A stretch of DNA of 64,000 nucleotides. Origin: Octopus vulgaris. Taxonomy: Eukaryota. The position numbers were made by a program, and so were the translations under genes. This document shows positions 1-63,800 of the stretch, in pieces (position 1 is the stretch's first letter; each line of letters starts with the position of its first letter). The DNA lies in the NCBI GenBank assembly GCA_951406725.2, contig OX597824.1, forward strand, positions 56,172,001-56,236,000, in the 5' to 3' direction. The notes beneath the pieces are model-generated. The model was not told where the DNA came from, did not search any database, and worked only from the letters and a program-made list of their open reading frames with translations.

Positions 1-1296
1 ACGAGAAAACTGGTGAGAGTGACGATTGAAGAAATAGAGAAATGTCTGGGGGACATCATGAAAAAAGCGACTTTTGTAGACAGAGGAAAGAAATATGGTA
101 CGGTGGAGGTGAGATGCGCAACAAAGGAAGTGGCGGCCTCATTGGCTTCCACTGTCCTGAAAGCGGAAAATTTCACCATGTGGCCGACGTATAAAGGAAG
201 ACGAGGGGTACGGGTAAGAGTCCCAAAGGTGCCCCCAGATATTAAAACAGAAATGCTGGTAACAGCCATTATTGGGGCAACAAAAGAGGAAGTAGAAATA
301 GGGTCAATCAAGGAGACCAACGTTGTAAATTGGAAGGGATTCGGAGTAGAGTTGTGGCTGATGGCCACAATGGAAGACATCGAAAGATTTCCCTTCCAAA
401 TAGAAATAGAAAACGAGAAAACAATTAGTGTAATAGTGGAAGGCAGAAAACCGAATTGCTACCTGTGCGGATCAAGAGGGCACATAAAAAAGGAATGTCC
501 GCCCTATGAATTCACAGCGGAGCAAAAAGAGACACAAAGTGGAGAGAAGGAAAACGAACACGAAGGAAAGAACAGCGAAAACAAGGAAAAGGAAATAACG
601 GAGAAACAACAAGAGAAGGGAAGTAACAGCGCACTGAAGGAAAATGAAAACAAAGGGAAGAAGATAGTAGAAAAGGAGCAAAATTCACAGGGTGCAGAAG
701 TAGTGGAGAAGGAGCCAAGGCAGAAGCAAGAGAAAGAAAAGGAAAGTACATTAAAGGAAAGAGAAAAAGCAGGAAAAGAACAAGAGAAGGAACAGAACCA
801 AGAGAAAGGAAAAGATGGTATGCAAAAAGGAAAAGAAACAACAGGAAAGGAACTCAAGGCACAGGGTAGAGAGACGGCAGACAAAGAGCCAAAAAGACAA
901 GAGAAGGAAAAAGAAAGAAGAGAAAGCAAAAAGAGAGAAAGAGAGAAACCGAGGGAGGAGAAAAAAGAGGAAGTAAGTCCTAAGAGAAAAACTAGAGAAA
1001 ACGTAGGTACGAATAGAAAATTCAAATACTATGGAACGTTGATCCATCACAGGCACTGTGAGGAGATGGAAGATTTAATAAACGTAACAAACGGATATAC
1101 GTGGGTCAGGATGGGCACCGAATGGAAAGAAACAGGTGCACTCGTCCACGAGAACGACGCCGAGGCGTTCATCGAGGCAGCTGGCAAGAACGTGTCAAAA
1201 CATGAAATGCCGACTTACAAGGTGGCCACGAACGATGGAAGTTTACTCAGATTTGGTAGAGATAATGGAGTATATATAAAAGAAAAGGTATTGTGA
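1..1296 (+). CDS. LINE ORF1 (gag-like) protein with CCHC zinc knuckle and long E/K-rich linker; 5' part lies outside the window
   Basis: Frame 1 is open from base 1 to TGA at 1294-1296 (ORF track 13..1296, 427 aa). It contains VIVEGRKPNCYLCGSRGHIKKEC (C-x2-C-x4-H-x4-C, 457-498), a context typical of L1/Tx1-group ORF1. Confidence 0.75.
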   Translation, partial: TRKLVRVTIEEIEKCLGDIMKKATFVDRGKKYGTVEVRCATKEVAASLASTVLKAENFTMWPTYKGRRGVRVRVPKVPPDIKTEMLVTAIIGATKEEVEIGSIKETNVVNWKGFGVELWLMATMEDIERFPFQIEIENEKTISVIVEGRKPNCYLCGSRGHIKKECPPYEFTAEQKETQSGEKENEHEGKNSENKEKEITEKQQEKGSNSALKENENKGKKIVEKEQNSQGAEVVEKEPRQKQEKEKESTLKEREKAGKEQEKEQNQEKGKDGMQKGKETTGKELKAQGRETADKEPKRQEKEKERRESKKREREKPREEKKEEVSPKRKTRENVGTNRKFKYYGTLIHHRHCEEMEDLINVTNGYTWVRMGTEWKETGALVHENDAEAFIEAAGKNVSKHEMPTYKVATNDGSLLRFGRDNGVYIKEKVL

Positions 1297-1570
1297 AAAC
1301 TTTAATTTGGAAATGATAAAAAGAACTTTAAATTCTGGAAAAAAAAAAATGTTGAACTTTGTAAAATTTTTGAAATGTATGTTGAAAATGTATAAAATGT
1401 TTTATTTGGAAAATATTGTTGACGAATAAAAAACAAATGACGAAATGTAACCGCTCGATTTCGGGGATCGAGTGGGCATTACACCACATTGTACAAACTT
1501 CATAATTCATTATTCATTTTACCTATTGTATTGTCCCATCTATGTTCGCCCCTTGTGGGTAATAATAAAA
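1..1570 (+). mobile_element. ORF1-only (HAL1-like) non-autonomous retroelement
   Basis: ORF1 is followed by ~270 nt of non-coding sequence ending TGTCCCATCTATGTTCGCCCCTTGTGGGTAATAATAAAA. No endonuclease/RT ORF follows. Confidence 0.55.
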
Positions 1571-1574
1571 CAAC

Positions 1575-1775
1575 ATGGAGGAAAGCACCCTCGAAAAGTG
1601 TCTTGGTGCGACTTATGAAAGATATCTAATCAGAGGCGGTAAATTCGCCACAATAGAAGCAAGGTTCGAATCAACGGAGCGTGCAAGGGAGTACTCGACT
1701 CAAACTTGCAAAGTGGAAATATTTTATTTTTACCATTATATCTGGGACGTAGGATGTCCCGGAAAAAAATTTTAA
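1575..1775 (+). pseudogene. Degenerate fragment of a related ORF1 N-terminal region
   Basis: EESTLEKCLG..IRGGKFATIEARF, then after a frameshift LQSGNILFLPLYLGRR. These align by eye to IEEIEKCLG..DRGKKYGTVEVRC..LKAENFTMWPTYKGRR of the upstream ORF. Confidence 0.6.
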
Positions 1776-2090
1776 ATGAGGTAGGCCACACTTCTATACA
1801 AAAGAGAGGACAAGATACAATTGAGCAAAATTACAAGAGACGGGCTAACAATTCCAGTCTGTTATATATTTTGAGAATTGTTATCACTAGCGATATCAAG
1901 ATATAACTTTGTATTTTGCATTTTATGTGTAGATGTATATATATAAATGTACATGTAATATCTACACATATATATACACATATATATATGCACTAGCACT
2001 ATGACCCAGCAACGACGGGTCTTTAATGCTAGTCTATATATAAATATGTATATATAATGTATATATACAAAGTGTATATATCTGTATTTA

Positions 2091-28249: not shown

Positions 28250-28986
28250 TTTCTCACAATGTCTTGGTTGGTAAAAGTTAAAATATCAAATGCAGTATCA
28301 GATATTTATAGGGAAATGGCATGGTCTTGTAATCTTGCTTGATATTAAAAAATATTGTAAAAAAATTGGTCTATAATATCAAAAAATATTGTAAAAAATT
28401 GGTCTATGACTGGGTTGGATATTTTGATCCAGTTAAAGGAAGAACCCCTGGATAAGATTTCCAAATTTATTGAATTGCTGATCATAGTGAAAGGTAGAAA
28501 ACCTAGATATCATACATGCAAGAGCAGCACACACTTTAAGGCCCTCAACAACAAAGTGGAAATGCAAGAAGTTCTATGCTGCAGCCAACATCATAGCTAC
28601 AGCAACAACTACACCAACAAGAACAGCAACATCCCCAGCAGCTCCAACAAGAAAAGCAACTGCAATTGTGGAGACCAGAAATCAGTAATTCTACAACAGC
28701 TACTCATACAAGCATGGGAGGTCTTTTTATCCACTGGTCAACCAATACAGAGAAACAATCACGCACACATGCATATCCATCTCTTCCTAATACAAATTTA
28801 GTAGATATAGAAGTATTATACTCTAATGCGAACAAGATGAGACCATTGCGAAAAGCAAGTATTGCAGCAAAGAACAACTCAAAAAGCAAGAAACACAAAA
28901 ACTGTCTTAAAACCATCCAACAACATCAACACCAAAATTCCAACAACAGCATAACCAATGACCACAACTACAAAAAACAAAAGCAC
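28250..28986 (+). pseudogene. Degenerate ORF1-like remnant related to the 1-1296 ORF
   Basis: LIIVKGRKPRYHTCKSSTHF resembles VIVEGRKPNCYLCGSRGHI. A low-complexity tail continues after the 28991-30097 insertion. Confidence 0.5.
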
Positions 28987-52148: not shown

Positions 52149-54331
52149 CAGTAGTCCCCCGGTATTCGCAGGGGATTACATTCCTTGAGCACCCACGAAT
52201 ATTGGATGTAGTCCATAAAAATGCCTATAAATGTCAAAATATATTATAAAATATTATAAATATATATATATATAATATTTAACAATAATTTAATAAAAAA
52301 TAAAATAAAATGTACTGGTGCTCACAAATAATGAATGATATTGATGTAAGACGATGATGATGAAAGAAATGAAGGTAATGACTGCACAGCAAAGAAGATT
52401 TCAAGCTCTTCATATGATGCCTCTTTCTCAGATGTTTTAGCGGGTGTTGTATCTTTGTGCAAGGCTTTGTTGGTGGGCTTGAGGAACATTGTGATGGGAA
52501 GTTGTTGTCGTTTTTTCTTCATAATGGTGAAGAGAGTTTTATATGTCTGCATGGCAGCATTAACGACATTTTTAAGTTGGAGAGACCAAACTATCTAGGG
52601 TTCCCATGCTTCCGCCTTCCCTTGCAATTCCTTTGCTGCCCTTAAATGGTCAGACAGATGTCCAGTTGCCAGGCTCACCTCATCCTTTTCTTCCTCTGGA
52701 TCTGGTGCTTCCTCCTCTTCACTGGTAGACTTCGTCTGTCAGGGTTTCAGAGTGGGCATCAATGAGGTCATTGACCTCATTTTGTGTGATATCATCAAAA
52801 CCTTCGTCACCAAGTACCCTTGCCAGTTTCACTGCATTGTTGACAGCTCCGTGCTGAATATCTTCAGGTGAGAAACCTTCGTAATCCTGGACACACTCTA
52901 GCCACACCTTCTTCCTGCATACGATGAGGGTTTGTTTTTTCATGTCTTTAAGTGCAGCGTGGATGTCTGACAGGCACGTTGTGATCATGAAGATATGCCA
53001 GTACTCCTTTAACTTGAAATTCTCATCAAAATCTATTGTGTCCACAAGGTGTTGGAGAGAGTTCTGAGTGTGAAGTGCTTTGAAGGCATGGATCACACCT
53101 TGATCTACAGGATGGATGAGGGAGGTGGTGTTGGCAGGGAAGAACTTGAATTCCCTCATGATTCAAATCCAAAGTGATCACCAGCATTATCCATAACAAG
53201 CAACACCTTGAATTCTATGTAAACATTTTGGGAGTATTCCTTGGCTTGAGGGATGAAGCATTGGTGGAATCAATTCAAAGTTAAACTTTTGGTAATCCAG
53301 GCCTTGGGGTTGTGCATTCAGTGGATGATCAGTAGGTTTTTATTCTTATTTTTGAAGGCCCTTAGATTCATGAACTTGTAGATAAGTCTTGGTTTCATCA
53401 TGAAGAGCCAGCATCACTCTGTCCTTCTGTGCCTTAAACACTGGGGCTCTGGTTTCATCCTTCATGATGTACATTCTGGAAGGGATCTTCTTCCAGAGCA
53501 AGCCAGTCTCATCCATACTGAAAACCTGTTTTGGTTTGTATCCCTTATCTTTGATGATCTACCTGGAGGTCTCGAGGTACTTCCCAGTGACATTTTTCTT
53601 GGCTGATGCTGTCTTTCCATGCAGGGAAACACACTTTCTTTTAAGTCAGTTCTGGAAATGGTCAAACCATCCTTTGCTGGTTTGAAAATCTTCAGGTTCC
53701 GGTGTTGTCAATGGTCTTGGTTGTGGTTCTTCGGTGCCTTTTGCTCTGTCTCCTCTGTTGAACTGCTGATATAATTTCCACACTTTCTCGCAGATGATGT
53801 TACCGCTCTAGGGGATGTTTTTCTTCTTGCAGTCACTGATCCACAATGCCAAGGCAGATTCCATCTAGACAAAGTGCTTATTTCTCATTATCATTATCTT
53901 TTTGGCACTTTCACAGAAACTTACTGCCAAGATAGTCCTGCCCGCCACCTCGTTCTCCTTTATGTAGCGTATGGTGCTTTCGTTGACAACATAATAGTGA
54001 CCAACTGCAGCATAACTTTTACCTTCCTGGAACATATCCAGCAGTTGTACTTTCTTATGGGGCATCATAACCTTTTTCTGGCACTTAGGTTCACTGCCAG
54101 AAGCCTGTAGGGTATTTGGGCAGCATCTTGGGCATTAATACACTGCGAAAAAAACAGCACTCAACAAAATACTGGAGATAGCTACTGGATGTAGTTTTTC
54201 CAACAAAAAACCTACAAAAAAATCTTTACTGCATCTAATATGCACATACCACCAATGGGAGATTGAAGAGAGATTAAAAATAATCATGGTTTTGAAAAAT
54301 TTAGTTTGTATTACCACTAGATACAGTAATC

Positions 54332-55194: not shown

Positions 55195-56084
55195 ATTCAT
55201 TCTTTTATTGGCCACAAGGGCTAATATAAAAATATATTAAAGGACATGACACTCACATAAACAACAACACAAAACAATACAATGGGTTTTAATGCATGTA
55301 AACAGTAAAAACAATAAAAAATTAAGCAAGTAAAACTCCCAATAGGGAGAGGTGCTTTAAAGGTCCTTGTGGAAAAACCCACAAAAGCCACGAGTGCCTG
55401 ATCAACAGGGCAAGAGCTCTTCTCCTTTTATTTCTTCACAGGTGTACACTCAGAATTGGTCCTTTCACACTGCCCATTCTTCCAACATTCACCTATCTTT
55501 CAACAAACTTGCTAGAAGGCAACACTTCCCTCTGCACCCTCACTTTCCTCTTCAAGTGAAACTTGAAAAAGTTGATGAGGGCTTGGCCAAAGAAGAAAGT
55601 GTCTGACTTCAGCCCTTTCAGATGAGTCACCCACACTACCTCTTTTGCTTCAGCCACCAGGCAAATAAAAACTGCCTGCCCCTCCTGGCCAAAGGAGGGT
55701 GGCAGGGCAATCTTCACTATGGATTCAAGTGATAGCCGGATCTGTCCTACACATGACAGCTGGTGTTTGACATAACCCACATGTCAGTAATGCTCATGCT
55801 CTGGATGAGGGCATCAGTTTCGTCACTCTGCATGCACCTTGGGCAAGCCCGGCTATAGCACTTCTGTACCTGTAAAGTTTATCCTGAATGGGCAGCACCC
55901 TTCGGTAGCACTGCCAGGTAAGGGATTTCTGGAAATCATCCATAGGACCAGGCCCGAAAGTTCTCTGAAACAGACCAGATAGTTGATTTTCGTCAACACC
56001 CAAAGCTTCAATAATAACAACCAACTGCAGAACATATGAGAAGGGATAACAACATGAACTGTCATCTTGTAGTGATGGAATCAA
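55195..56084 (-). mobile_element. 3' end of a Tx1/L1-group LINE (ORF2 C-terminus and 3' UTR)
   Basis: FGPGPMDDFQKSLTWQCYRRVLPIQDKLYR and FICLVAEAKEVVW..LINFFKFHLKRK. The 3' end reads TATTAGCCCTTGTGGCCAATAAAAGA on the minus strand. Confidence 0.7.
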
Positions 56085-58050: not shown

Positions 58051-58742
58051 AAATGTATATATTTTTTTATAATATATTATTTTTAATATCAGGAAATCAA
58101 TATTAGAAAATTCTTCAGAAAGATATATACGTGTGTAAAATAATTGTTGTATTAAAAATATCAGTATGTATAAAAATATATGTAAATATGTATAAGTATA
58201 AATATATAATGTATATGACAGTTTAAAAGTTTTTAAAGTTTTAAAGCATCTTACGATTGTTTCACAGAAGTGCTGTCCCTATAATGAAATCCTATATTGA
58301 TAAGCATTTATAGACAACTCTTCTGCTTTTCAGCAATATAAAATTTGAATTTTGTATAACATATCGAATGGTAGTTTTTTAAAAATTTGAAGTAATACTA
58401 CAAAATGGTGTTTGTTTGAAATATAAATTAAAAATTACTGCTTTTGATGAGAGTCTTTAAATCCATATATACTTCCTTGGTTAGTCTTACAAAATTCAAA
58501 TTCGCAGTATTCATTGGCGTGTCACAGATTTGAAAGAACTTAAGAAACTGATTCATTGGATTGTTGAATAGTGGAGATGAATTTTGTTCTTTCAGCTAAT
58601 ATCAGTTTCTTTAATGTGGCGAATTGGCAGAATCGTTAGAAGAGCATAAGCTCGAAATGTCAAAGACACTTCCATTTTCCTGAGCATCAAGCTAATACAC
58701 TTTGTTTGTTGTTCCCTCACCTTACATCTGTTTTTTTGTACA

Positions 58743-58776
<34 letters not shown>

Positions 58777-58897
58777 TGTACAGTTAGATGTACAACCACT
58801 ACTGTATGAGTTCGAACTCCATGTAGAAAATGCAGTTACCTTCTGGTATAATAGTTGGCCACTGTACATTGCAGTGTTGCTAGTTATGATATATAAA

Positions 58898-59809
58898 GAG
58901 AAGAAGTTTCAGGTGTGGAAGCATGGTTTAGAATCGAAGGGCCTTAGAGTCAACCTAGCTAAAACCAAAGTCATAATAAGTAGGAAGGTAGACAAATCAC
59001 AAACGCCTTCAGGTAGATGGCCCTGCTCGATCTGTAGAAAAGGTGTAGGTAGAAACTCTATAAGATGCACCAAATGTAAGCTATGGACACATAAGAGGTG
59101 CAGCAATGTCATAGGAAGGCTAACTAGGAAGATGGTTTTTGTATGTGGCAGATGCTCGGGAGCATTAACCTCTGAAAATCTGCAGAAAACAACTTCCGTC
59201 ACTTTCCAGGGGGAAAAACTAGAAGTAGTTGATAGCTTCCGTTATCTTGGTGACCAAGTCAGTAGTGGGGGTGGGTGTGCTGAAAGTGTAACGGCTAGAG
59301 TAAGAATAGCCTGGGCAAAGTTTCGGGAGCTCTTACCTCTGTTGGTGACTAAAGGCCTCTCGCTCAGAGTAAAAGGCAGACTGTATGATGCATGTGTACG
59401 AACAGCCATGCTACATGGCAGTGAAACATGGGCCGTGACTGCTGAGGACATGCGTAAGCTCGCGAGAAATGAAGCTAGTATGCTCCGTTGGATGTGTAAT
59501 GTCAGTGTTCATAGTCGACAGAGTGTAAGTACCTTGAGAGAAAAGTTGGACCTAAGAGGCATCAGATGTTGTGTGCAAGAGAGACGATTGCGCTGGTATG
59601 GTCATGTGGTGAGAATGGATGAAGATAGGTGTGTGAAAAAGTGCCACACCCTGGCAGTTGAGGGGACCTGTGGAAGAGGTAGACCCAGGAAAACCTGGGT
59701 CGAGGTGGTGAAGCACGACCTTCGAACTATAGGTCTCACCAAGGAAATGACCAGAGACCGAGACCTATGGAAGTATGCTGTGCGTGAGAAGACCCGGCAA
59801 GACCAGTGA
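58898..59809 (+). CDS. Uninterrupted C-terminal ~300 aa of RTE LINE ORF2 (end of RT with PHD-finger insert); 5'-truncated, so not a complete gene
   Basis: GLRVNLAKTKV, a C4HC3 motif, FRYLG, LHGSETW, RRLRWYGHV.RM and RGRPRKTW. No stops until TGA at 59809. Confidence 0.85.
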   Translation, partial: EKKFQVWKHGLESKGLRVNLAKTKVIISRKVDKSQTPSGRWPCSICRKGVGRNSIRCTKCKLWTHKRCSNVIGRLTRKMVFVCGRCSGALTSENLQKTTSVTFQGEKLEVVDSFRYLGDQVSSGGGCAESVTARVRIAWAKFRELLPLLVTKGLSLRVKGRLYDACVRTAMLHGSETWAVTAEDMRKLARNEASMLRWMCNVSVHSRQSVSTLREKLDLRGIRCCVQERRLRWYGHVVRMDEDRCVKKCHTLAVEGTCGRGRPRKTWVEVVKHDLRTIGLTKEMTRDRDLWKYAVREKTRQDQ

Positions 59810-59856
59810 GAACAATCAAAATTAAATCATATATCAGAAAGCAGGGGTTAAGTGAC

Positions 59857-60290
59857 CCATCCGTTCGTGTCCGCTGTCAGCCTCGTCTGGCACCCGTGCC
59901 GGTGATACGTAAAAGCACCATTCGCTCGTGGCCATTTGCCAGCTCTGCCTGGCCCCCATGTCGGTGGCACGTAAAAGCACCATCCGTTCGTGTTCGTTGC
60001 CAGCCTCGCCTCTGGCCCCGTGCCGGTGACACGTAAAAGCACCGTCCGTTCGTGGCCATTTGCCAGCTCTGTCTGGCCCCGTGTCGGTGGCACGTAAAAG
60101 CACCGTCCGTTCGTGGCCGTTTGCCAGCTCTGTCTGGCCCCGTGTCGGTGGCACGTAAAAGCACCATCCGTTCGTGTCCGTTGCCAGCATCGCCTGGCCC
60201 CGTGCCGGTGACACGTAAAAGCACCAACCGTTCGTGGCCGTTCGCCAGCTCTGTCTGGCACCTGTGCAAGGTGGCACGTAAAAAACACCC
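59857..60290 (+). repeat. Seven ~60-62 bp tandem units of two subtypes (order A-B-A-B-B-A-B)
   Basis: Units end in ACGTAAAAGCACC (the last is a variant). Subtype A has GTGTCCG..GCCGGTGA; subtype B has GTGGCC..GTCGGTGG. Confidence 0.92.
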
Positions 60291-60840
60291 ACTACACTCG
60301 CGGAGTGGTTGGCGTTAGGAAGGGCATCCAGCCGTAGAAACACTGCCAGATCTGACTGGGCCTGACGAAGCCTTCCAGCTTCACAGACCCCAGTTGACCC
60401 GTCCAACCCATGCTAGCATGGAAAGCGGACGCTAAATGATGATGATGATGATGATGAAAGCATACATAGTGGAAATTCTTACATATGTTTCACTGTTACT
60501 GTTAACTGGAACTCAGCATTGGATGTTTCAAGTTCATCCGGATGCCTAACTGTAATGGATCATCTGAGGAACACTTTATTGCATTCTGTTACAGATATTG
60601 AAATATCTGAAGTTAGATTCATGGTGAGGTAATTTCCAAGTATTTAGAGATGGAAGTAGAAAGCGAACAAGTTAGTGATGAAGAGAAAAAAGGAAGAGAG
60701 AGCATGTGATGGAGTGGAAAAAGAGGAATCCCAACCACGTTGTTCTGCATGCAATCTCACTGCATGGCATCTTGGGCAAGTATCTTCTACTATAGCATTA
60801 TGAGTGGCCGACCAAAGTCTTGTGAGTTGATTTGGTAGAC

Positions 60841-63800
60841 TGTTGTGGAAGGATTCCAATCACCCCCAAGTGACTTAAAGTGGACTAACTCATTGTTATA
60901 AAACAAAGAACTGAGCAATTGACAGTTCGTGTTGGGAGCAGCTCACTGTGAGCCTTTAATATAGTGTTGTGTAATAGTAATAATAGTGCGTCATGTATAT
61001 ACTTTCTTCCCCCCTGCTTTGTTATATTATATATCCAATACAAGGATACAAAAAGTGGCAATGAGTTGTTTGAAGCTTGCATTGGACATTTTTTTTTTTG
61101 GTACAAAAGCAAAGTAAAAATCGTTTTAACAATAAAGGCTTATTGGCTTCCATGGTGCAGTTGCAACAGCAACTACAGCAACAACAAAACCAACAGTTGC
61201 TGAAATTAATGTTGAAAAAGTCTGAAAATACTTCAAGTTTGTACTCACCAGACAGCATAGAAAACTCAGTTGAAGAATTCAGCTATAATCCAGAAGAACA
61301 ATTACCTTCTCTGCATATTTTCGTAGATACTAAGAAATCTTCAAAGAAGAGTGTAAAAGTTGGTCTGACAAGAAAAAAGTATGACTACTTTTAAGAAAGT
61401 TATCCCCTACCAAACACAAAAAATATATTAACTACATTCCGCTGAAAAAGTCAGGTGAAACAATATTTTATTGAAAATTTTCAGTGAAAGAAGTTCCCTG
61501 GCAATGTTTAAATTTGGTCAAAAAAGATGAAGAAAATTTTGTTATCTATGCTGGAGTGGTTAACAGAGAGTATGAGAAATTCAAATTGAATGAGTTGACT
61601 AAGTCTTTAATTGAAGGTGTGCCGAGTGATACAGCAGATCACTGTGATGAACCAGGATCATTAAAAACAGTTCCTCATCTATTAAGTTCACTTGAGTTAA
61701 ATGTTTTAGTTAGAGACATGGATTCAACAAAAAGGTCAGAACTACTGGGCTTCAGGTTGAAACAATAGAATCATTTCCATGATGGTGTAAAATGCATACA
61801 GAATTACATAAATTTTTTACAGAGAAAGATTGTATTTGTTTTTTTGTAATGTTGAAGGACTCCAACGTGAGATGGGGTATGGCCATAATCCTGAAGAATG
61901 GAGACTCTTCATAGATTCCAGCAGCAAAGCAAGCCTAAAAGCTGTTTTGCTGCATAATGGCAATCAAAAACCTTCAATACTACCAGCACATGCTGTAGGA
62001 TTAAAGGAAACTTATGAATCAATGGATAAAATTTTGTACTTGATTAAATATTCTGAGCACAAGTGGAATATATGCGGGGACTTGAAAGTTATTGGTTTGC
62101 TTCTTGGGTTGCAAATGGGGTATATCAGTGCTTTTTGTGCTTTTGGAACAGCAGAGAAGACAAGCATCACTATGATCAGAAAGAATGTCCAAAGAGAAGT
62201 GGTTTCACTCCAGGGAGATACAATGTTAAATATATCCCTTTAGTTGACCCTCAGAAAATTTATCTTCCTCCCTTACACATTAAACTTGGTTTGTTTAAGA
62301 ATTTTGTTAAGGCCATGAATGAAGATTGTGAAGGATTTAAATATCTCAGTGAAAAATTTGTTTCTAGCAAGAGTGAAGCTAAGATCAAAGCTGGTGTTTT
62401 TAATGGACCAGAAATTTGCACACTAATTTGTGATGAGCTTTTTCAAGAAAAATTGAGCCCAATAGAGAAAACTGCCTGGGAAAAGTTTGTTTCTATTGTA
62501 AAAAATTTTGGAGGAAATGAAAAGTCATCTAACTACATTGCAATTGTGAATGACTTTTTGAAAGCTTGTAAGCAACTTGGGGCAAGAATGTCTCTAAAAA
62601 TTCATTTTCTCCACTCTCATCTTGACTTTTTTCCACCCAATAGGGTGGTGTAAGTGATGAGCATAGTGAACAATTTCATCAAGAAATCAAAGAGCTAGAA
62701 AGCCGCTACAGAGGCAGACTTACACCAAACATACTGATGGACTACTGCTGGTTTTTAAAACGAGAAACAGACATGCAACATAAGTGTAAAAGAAGACGCC
62801 AAAGCTATTTTTGAAAAACATAAAATTAATGATATTCACTTCACACTTTTGTTTCATGTTTTATTGGTTTTAGAGCTACTTGTCCACCTAGTTATAATTG
62901 TTCTTATACCAAATAACAGTAATTTATCCTTAACATAACATTCATGGATTTTCACATTATTGTAATTTTGATAGCAGTATAATAATGATAGCACAAAGAC
63001 ATGACACGCTAGAGCAAAAATGATTGCAGATTCTGAATCAGTGCTTTCAATTTACCTATAAGCACTAGTTTGTCTAATAGTAGCAAAAATTTTTTCACCA
63101 ATAATTATCGGTGACAAAAAATATGAATGAGCCTCAAAGAAAACTTGTGTATGTAAAAATTAATAACAAACGGAAAGTTATAATTGGATACAGACAACAA
63201 CATCTCAATAATTAACACAGATACATGGAAAAGGATCAGGAGGCCTAAATTAAATGAAACCCTGAAAATTGCCCATGGTGTTGCAGGAAAAAATTATATT
63301 TAAGGGTGAATTAATTAATAACATTACATTTTGTGAAAAAAATCTTAAAAGCTAAAGCTTTTGCATTAAATAATACAACAAACTTACTGGGTACTGACTG
63401 GATGGAATTGTTTGATTTATGGGACCTCCCCATAAATCTGTTTTGTAAAAATGTGTATGGTTTTTCTTGCTGTACAAATAAGTTATCAGACGAATTGAAA
63501 AAAAATTTTTTGATATTATTTCTAAAGTTCTGTCTGATAAATTAGACAATAAACTGCAGCAAGACAAAGGTGCAGTTTCAAATAAAAGAAAACACCAATA
63601 TTTAAAGAAAAAATTAACTGTACTGTTCGCAGTGTTAAAACAGGTTAACTTAGAGTTAGAGAGACTAGAAAAATATTGGAGTTATCCAAAAAGTGGAATA
63701 TAGTGATTGGGCATCACCAACTGTGTTTGTTAAGAAAAAGAATTAAAAAATCAGTGTGCTGATTTTTTTCACTGGAATTGAACACTAAGCGTAAGAGACA

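Follow-up and report, generated by a model that had tools for sequence, protein, structure and literature searches.

Positions 1-1572 of a 64,000-nucleotide stretch of Octopus vulgaris DNA (assembly GCA_951406725.2, contig OX597824.1, positions 56,172,001 to 56,236,000 of the forward strand; this whole stretch is hereafter the window) belong to a retroelement family, here named family A, which is very probably a 1.93-kb non-autonomous long interspersed nuclear element (LINE) encoding only the first open reading frame (ORF1), whose protein is predicted to bind RNA, likely reverse-transcribed in trans by an autonomous LINE, T1, and situated at a fixed site of a Helitron-like repeat or where that site is repeated in the head of an element already in place. 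Family A is multicopy and lacks ORF2, has its 3' tail and its target in common with T1, is accompanied by target site duplications (TSDs), is found in arrays and keeps its ORF1 under selection. An earlier note, made from the letters of the window, had proposed a protein-coding retroelement family devoid of reverse transcriptase (RT) that keeps its own RNA-binding protein and has a 3' tail in common with a LINE, and this core is borne out; the intactness of the window copy and the LINE named as its partner are revised below.

The element and its main parts are located in the window as follows.
1..1572, plus strand: in-window part of the ORF1-only element (family A), the whole element being 1925 nt long.
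1..1279, plus strand: ORF1 in the family frame, 493 aa, window position 1 corresponding to residue 68.
1201..1202, plus strand: 2-nt deletion private to the window copy, after which the frame runs on to a stop at 1294-1296.
1451..1475, plus strand: hairpin of the 3' untranslated region (UTR) with a G-rich loop, complementary to a C-rich box in most family copies.
1525..1571, plus strand: 3' tail of 47 nt, identical to the T1 tail and without poly(A).

The element starts 353 nt before the window (L021:9648), directly 3' of the tail of an element of the sister family A2, and the ORF1 methionine is 201 nt upstream of the window start in the neighbouring genome stretch. The long stop-free frame described in the earlier note is present at 1-1293 (431 aa, 5' end open), no ORF2 is found 3' of it, and the quoted tail is located at 1533-1565. 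The copy is not intact, as had been assumed, since 2 nt are missing after position 1201; owing to this frameshift the last ~30 aa are out of the family frame, the family stop codon being at 1277-1279 in this copy. The deletion occurs in one of 32 near-full-length copies, that of the window, and the two missing letters are present in contigs from three of four public runs. The C-rich box of the window copy (1517-1525) has two changes.

The 3' part of the element gave 40 scored matches at 89-100% identity (718 candidates) and the 5' part 37 matches at 90% or above, the next ones falling to 83-84%, so that family A can be put at about 40 copies. They occupy 35 loci on 18 contigs, the nearest lying 1.15 Mb from a contig end and thus none nearer than 1.1 Mb. 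The 5' end is full-length in 35 of 42 A-type copies, while 3 of 42 are plainly 5'-truncated and 4 of 42 are chimeric or internally deleted. ORF1 sites were surveyed in fetched stretches of 10 kb, and the genome searches give lower bounds, so that the counts of ORF2 in cis describe a sample and not a census. At 137 ORF1 sites of families A, A2, A3, B1, B2 and C the tail follows within 1.5 kb in 122 and an ORF2 in none, with neither in 6 and an edge in 9; T-type ORF1 sites are followed by an ORF2 in 58 of 66 cases. In addition, 20 divergent A-like loci outside this sample, taken from the 150 best protein matches, have no ORF2 behind the A-like ORF1; a tail is recognisable in 10 of them and the other 10 are decayed. 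The joining of ORF1 to the tail in many copies, for which the earlier note had suggested a test, is therefore a property of the families (122/137, with ORF2 behind in 0/137), and a single-copy locus or a one-off deletion of ORF2 is ruled out by the ~40 copies and by the lack of ORF2 in cis (0/137 and 0/20 sites). None of the three outcomes that the note had set against its own proposal (an ORF2 downstream in other copies, a single-copy locus, a tail similarity lost in a family-level alignment) was encountered at family level.

T1 is a 5.2-kb LINE with ORF1 and ORF2 whose 3'-terminal 47 nt are identical (47/47) to the tail of family A. Its ORF2 contains the Pfam domains PF03372 (APE endonuclease), PF00078 (RT) and PF13966 (zf-RVT), and the nearest solved sequences are those of L1 ORF2p; we take T1 to be of Tx1 type from its architecture, no named Tx1 reference being present among the 120 RT homologues listed for it. 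A 38-nt piece of the tail has 59 exact genomic matches, 12 of which are family-A ends, and all the other fetched loci (37/37) end in T1. Upstream of the tail the 3' UTRs of A and T1 cannot be aligned; in each, a C-rich box placed before the tail is complementary to the G-rich loop of a hairpin. The letters of loop and box differ between A (where the commonest pair is found in 29 copies), A2 (22) and T1/T3, T3 being a second autonomous family, and their complementarity is preserved; B and C show a less exact fit, and in some single copies, that of the window among them, the match is broken. Further autonomous families, T3 and at least one more, were observed at L163, L175, L043 and L119.

The sequence that follows the element in the window contains the target and its host.
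1573..2032, plus strand: 3' half of the host repeat, which is Helitron-like, non-autonomous and contains a decayed L1/Tx1-type ORF1 fragment.
1573..1586, plus strand: target site 1 and TSD, 14 nt also found at the 5' flank of the array (L021:7869-7882).
1851..1860, plus strand: target site 2, used by older copies and empty in the window.
2003..2032, plus strand: Helitron-type 3' end, consisting of a hairpin, CTAG and then T.

The 5' half of the host is at L021:7328-7868, 2.1-2.7 kb before the window, and between the two halves lie the A2 element and the window element, with a 14-bp direct repeat on both sides; 12 nt of target site 1 are repeated at the head of the window element itself. The host repeat is abundant (1563 candidates) and is characterised by a 5' TC, a (CTGT)n run near the 5' end, a 3' hairpin with CTAG and insertion between A and T, in agreement with the criteria for non-autonomous Helitrons taken from PMC4344730; the Helitron-type 3' end was found in 27 of 30 host loci and the 5' end in 22 of 30. 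Site 1 is located inside the decayed L1/Tx1-type ORF1 piece captured by the host, and of 30 fetched hosts of the long variant 23 are empty and 7 are filled at the same base. T1 3' ends (n=37) abut the host site in 31 cases and a T1 head in 2, with 4 off target, and of the A-type 3' ends (n=42) 32 lie directly against one of the two sites or its copy in a head, one more abutting the head of another LINE family within an array; the remaining 9 off-target A-type copies represent 6 independent events. An element is classed as target-specific when a single multicopy target accounts for over 20% of its flanks (PMC4494074); the proportions are 33/37 for T1 and 32/42 for family A, both above this threshold.

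Two targets were used successively. Site 1 is occupied by copies with 96-100% identity to the reference, the closest to that of the window, and site 2 by A copies at 82-96% and by older T1 variants, in a host variant that lacks ~280 bp. The junction of this short variant has 106 exact matches, and all 30 examples fetched are empty. In off-target copies of full length, the 5' end contains the target that was in use in the era of the copy, preceded by an unrelated TSD, and at most off-target 3' junctions the first 4-5 bases of the target of that era are retained. The off-target TSDs are of 18, 17, 17 and at least 16 bp, one of them on a copy 5'-truncated at nt 1458, so that the check for TSDs and 5' truncation suggested earlier gave a positive answer; TSDs together with a truncated copy are marks of target-primed reverse transcription (TPRT). 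Five host-adjacent copies are 97.2-98.4% alike and their host flanks 92.5-95.2%, so that the elements are younger than their hosts.

The units of an array are on the same strand, with T1 usually beside the 3' half of the host and the ORF1-only units upstream. Neither the head-to-tail arrays nor the target specificity for a Helitron-like repeat had been noticed in the earlier note. Of 21 pairs of neighbouring heads, 11 are identical over the first 11 nt, compared with 142 of 1192 (12%) between arrays, and sharing was found in 9 of 14 pairs in which the downstream head is a non-host variant. By analogy with tandem R1, such sharing would be produced by new units that duplicate the head of the element already present; because the other 10 pairs differ, the heads of incoming elements also contribute.

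Some units of the arrays are composite. Chimeras of a T1 5' part with the last 570 nt of family A and of an A2 head with an A body were observed (L016/L036-L037, G000:C10, 43.60 Mb, and L007/L040, G000:C17, 57.28 Mb), which are possible template switches between partners. A 982-nt unit in two arrays (L034-L035 and L037) has a T1-type head and tail and no long ORF, being an internally deleted T1 derivative. Matches to A2-type ORF1 recur every ~1.78 kb, with more than a dozen at G000:C7 100.087-100.120 Mb and eight at G000:C22 41.947-41.961 Mb.

A mechanism can be proposed in which the RNA of the element would be packaged by its own ORF1 protein (ORF1p), while T1 ORF2p would bind the tail, and probably also the fold formed by loop and box in the 3' UTR, nick the target and prime reverse transcription by TPRT. 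Each insertion would duplicate 12-18 bp of target, and full-length elements would also bring a copy of the target in their 5' end; because of this duplication and of the proposed head copy, a fresh site would be available after every insertion and arrays could grow unit by unit, new units often joining at the head of the resident element. The least certain step is that the RNA would read a few bases into the target and pair with the primer. The RNA likely runs into the target, since the first 4-5 target bases are kept even off target, and the pairing of read-through bases with the primer has been proposed for SART1 and R1Bm (PMC7265360).

The same element could also have a landing site determined by the endonuclease alone, the target copies at its ends being by-products, and this alternative is to be considered seriously, if as somewhat short of probable. 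It corresponds to the textbook view (PMC4494074). Between T1 copies of the old and the new site, the endonuclease has about a dozen differences in 245 residues, and a protein change may thus lie behind the switch of site. The loop before the SDH motif sets endonuclease specificity, and the site-1 T1 copies L033 and L118 retain the old-type segment in that position, which speaks against the endonuclease acting alone, as does the target of their own era in the 5' end of full-length off-target copies. Beyond the preferred reading of trans-mobilisation by T1, a wider and tentative proposal, regarded as rather doubtful, is that ORF1-only lineages and one or two complete LINEs form a system whose landing is self-renewing and remembered by RNA, each element carrying a target copy in its head and a few target bases read behind its tail; the site could then have shifted without a new endonuclease specificity, and the ORF1 proteins would be helper or targeting factors similar to the HeT-A Gag, away from telomeres.

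Selection on the protein was estimated from the ratio of nonsynonymous to synonymous substitution rates (dN/dS). Between A-clade subfamilies this is 0.07-0.18 in the N-terminal domains and 0.13-0.32 in the C-terminal domain, so that the dN/dS comparison suggested by the earlier note gave purifying selection. The ORF1 of family A is 34% identical to that of T1 and groups, with support 99/99, with protein P0011 (Octopus bimaculoides by its source; P0015, likewise named, groups with family C), for which reasons the lineage is considered old. All the ORF1-only families form one clade with support 95/90 without outgroups and the deep branching is lost when outgroups are added, so that a single origin is not established. 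Dense private A-to-G changes on the sense strand characterise single copies of sister families, namely L178 (A2, 44/45), L169 (B1, 13/14) and L126 (B1, 31/53), and the excess is also evident at family level in A2 (p 1e-6) and B1 (p 0.002). These hyper-edited copies point to edited RNA written back to DNA, that is, to an RNA step.

Such results bear on the view that the copies were dispersed chiefly by segmental duplication or as passengers of the Helitron-like host, the ORF1-only units being old deletion products copied passively. Duplicated blocks do exist, since L002, L004 and L005 share a 1.4-kb flank and L041 and L045 share an off-target site, and similar unit orders recur among arrays; however, element copies are more alike than their host flanks, most fetched hosts are empty, copies off target show TSDs and 5' truncations of their own, dN/dS lies far under 1 at saturated dS and the hyper-edited sister copies require an RNA step, all of which make this explanation very unlikely. 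Still less credible is the idea that the ORF1-only RNA arises by splicing or processing from an unsampled complete LINE with an A-type ORF1: searches giving lower bounds leave room for such a LINE, but ORF2 was found in cis at 0/137 and 0/20 sites, which include part of the 150 best protein matches, a list reaching down to 61% identity, and family A has a 3' UTR of its own, unrelated to that of T1 upstream of the tail.

The partner that the earlier note had proposed is a LINE remnant near the end of the window.
55204..56084, minus strand: decayed 3' fragment of a different L1/Tx1-type family, with 66% DNA identity to family T2 and 68% over 125 nt to T1.

The nature of the remnant had been rightly recognised, since at 55.2-56.0 kb (minus strand) it is the 3' end of an L1/Tx1-type ORF2, 43-62% identical to that of T1. 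Its tail match to family A, in contrast, is close to chance, with 20 of 25 aligned positions and a score of 23 (p ~0.03 against 2000 doublet shuffles), a score exceeded by the ten best of 3191 other 80-nt segments of the window (24-30) and by a SINE-like (short interspersed nuclear element) repeat, which scores 43. The likeness is that of a generic, clade-level tail motif. The SINE-like repeat is abundant (seen at L041, L045, L057 and L122, among others) and has this motif at its end, as these LINEs do. Mobilisation of the ORF1-only element by the family of the 55.2-56.1 kb remnant is the least credible of the explanations considered: the remnant is of the same LINE type and, like family A, ends in a version of the GCCC(C)TTGTGG..AATAA motif in the corresponding position, but it is decayed, closer to T2 and without host-site sequence behind its tail, and with a score of 23 against 92 for T1 it was rejected as the partner, the identical tail being that of T1, elsewhere in the genome.

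Several observations weigh against the mobilisation of family A by T1 at a renewed target as set out above. The step in trans is one that we infer from sequence comparison, and T3, whose tail is similar, could contribute; the T3 tail is nearer to those of the B and C families, and its ORF2 is ~70% identical to that of T1. The old-site T1 tails form a small sample (2). True 5' truncations are scarce, as given above (3/42), and the intact 493-aa ORF is present in only 7 of 32 near-full-length copies, although some of the breaks may be assembly errors. As for the arrays, neighbouring heads are unlike in 10 of 21 pairs and the last head equals the host site in 13 of 23 cases, so that growth is not confined to the 5' head, and block moves may account for some arrays. 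The dN/dS of the C-terminal domain is near 1 in two comparisons, 0.86 between young and old A copies (dS 0.07) and 1.01 between B1 and B2. Family A itself has no A-to-G excess (p 0.52), nor has B2. Finally, no autonomous parent with an A-type ORF1 was found among the sampled sites, and origin by deletion is consequently not established.

The ORF1 protein of family A can be divided into the following regions, with residues of the 493-aa protein where given.
1..201, plus strand: C-terminal part of predicted RRM-like domain 1 (residues 46-134, AlphaFold model).
202..444, plus strand: predicted RRM/ferredoxin-like domain 2 (residues 135-215, model, Z 7-8).
457..498, plus strand: CCHC zinc knuckle (Pfam PF00098, above cut-off).
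538..1014, plus strand: E/K-rich linker, predicted disordered, with a predicted local distance difference test value (pLDDT) below 50.
1021..1279, plus strand: C-terminal domain, predicted as beta-alpha-beta-beta-alpha-beta plus a helix (ferredoxin-like, AlphaFold model).

The model has a mean pLDDT of 63, with 80-88 in the N-terminal domains. Domain 1 superposes on the La RRM (Z 9.4, root-mean-square deviation (rmsd) 2.5, 82 aligned), the N-terminal model has tandem-RRM matches in Foldseek (best E 6.6e-06), and the Atlas lead for domain 2 is the RNA-binding domains of ZCCHC3 (score 0.90). The knuckle (E 7.5e-05 for zf-CCHC at 457-498) and the E/K-rich linker agree with what had been read from the letters. 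The Pfam search of family A ORF1 returned the knuckle alone, and no L1 ORF1 match was obtained in Pfam or among solved structures; the closest named proteins are from Octopus and Argonauta.

The C-terminal domain, which the earlier note had singled out as unrecognised, is predicted to be ferredoxin-like, and it resembles a YebC-family domain (Z 7.8, rmsd 2.0, 63 aligned); since this fold is common, the match would carry no functional implication. The AlphaFold check suggested for this segment thus gave a fold, with the restriction that the final ~30 aa of the window copy are off-frame. A domain peculiar to family A is not supported, since the model of the T1 ORF1 C-terminus has the same order of elements (pLDDT 86) and, folded alone, gives ferredoxin-like matches with Z up to 6.6 and no Foldseek match at E 0.001; homology by sequence is not significant. 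In particular, the profile comparison of A with T is not significant (9.8, shuffled maximum 13.2), that of C with T is modest (27.6 against 20.3) and that of A with C is weak. By position and predicted fold, and without a significant profile match, the A and T1 domains appear to be homologous. The family A domain was modelled only within the full-length protein, so that its fold search is thin. The capture of a foreign C-terminal domain was considered and is without support, there being no Pfam family and no usable Atlas match for it.

Other features of the window are of minor relevance to the element. A decayed fragment at 28361-28801 (plus strand) has weak similarity to family A ORF1 (tblastn E 0.001). 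A 389-aa frame at 58640-59809 (plus strand) may be the 3' end of an RTE-type LINE, which it resembles, and is adjoined by an internally repetitive stretch with long minus-strand frames (59834-60412); the frames at 52719-53162 (minus strand) and 61812-62653 (plus strand) are candidate remnants of DNA transposases, by resemblance.

ORF1-only LINEs are known in three clades, and the reasons for keeping the protein have been argued mostly from HeT-A. The octopus families add a case on the L1/Tx1 side that is young and multi-family, in which a partner can be identified, tail (47 nt) and target (14 bp) are defined and a past switch of target is recorded in the copies. Because partner, tail, target and record of the switch are defined, two questions become testable, namely of what use its own ORF1p is to a parasite able to borrow one, and how much of the aim of a site-specific LINE is carried by the RNA and how much by the endonuclease. 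Furthermore, retroelement arrays similar to those of telomeres form at dispersed interstitial sites, and a target set by RNA, if true, would be relevant to gene insertion with site-specific LINEs. A literature search returned no account of ORF1-only Tx1 partners, of Helitron-targeting Tx1 elements or of such arrays in octopus. A repeat annotation of Octopus vulgaris reports 13 recently active L1-Tx1 families, and its main text has 0 occurrences of "ORF1", "non-autonomous" and "nested", although its supplements, Repbase or Dfam may hold a consensus of these families (PMC13282606).

Among known systems, HAL1 of mammals and the CR1-derived Ag-Sponge are non-autonomous LINEs that retain ORF1, and like family A they encode ORF1p only, are multicopy, depend on autonomous LINEs and arose in several lineages; family A differs in its L1/Tx1-type ORF1 with two predicted RRM-like domains and a CCHC knuckle, its occurrence in octopus, its 47-nt tail without poly(A), its target specificity and its arrays (PMC5753468, PMC5786205). 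The cases described in the parts of these papers used here are derived from Jockey, L1 and CR1, and none from Tx1. Family A is not HAL1 proper, having no derivation from a mammalian L1, its nearest named proteins in Octopus and Argonauta, and a CCHC knuckle in place of an L1 ORF1 match. HeT-A of Drosophila, with TART and TAHRE, is similar in being ORF1-only, under purifying selection and disposed in same-direction head-to-tail arrays with RT-encoding partners, whereas the arrays of family A are short and interstitial, have TSDs on either side and lie within a DNA transposon, with no host function indicated (PMC5537684). The telomere confinement of HeT-A is not seen, all 35 loci on 18 contigs being more than 1.1 Mb from the ends.

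Tandem R1 arrays of Drosophila are extended when a new copy inserts into the 14-bp TSD found 5' of a resident element, much as is proposed here for T1 and family A, and R1 transcripts can include flanking target sequence; R1 arrays are autonomous and located in 28S rDNA, while those described here combine several ORF1-only families and a LINE at dispersed copies of a transposon (PMC2718515). The closest precedents for targeting are Tx1L in Tx1D of Xenopus, Tx1-Mar and SINEU-3 in Mariner-N4_AMi and Tx1-9_AMi in Harbingers, in which a LINE and a non-autonomous partner likewise use one target in a non-autonomous DNA transposon and tandem insertions sandwich the TSD; T1 and family A are distinguished by a host of Helitron type, a target within a captured ORF1 fragment, protein-coding partners and a switch between two sites recorded in both partners (PMC4494074). 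By analogy with these systems, family A would work like HAL1 or HeT-A combined with the transposon targeting of Tx1 elements.

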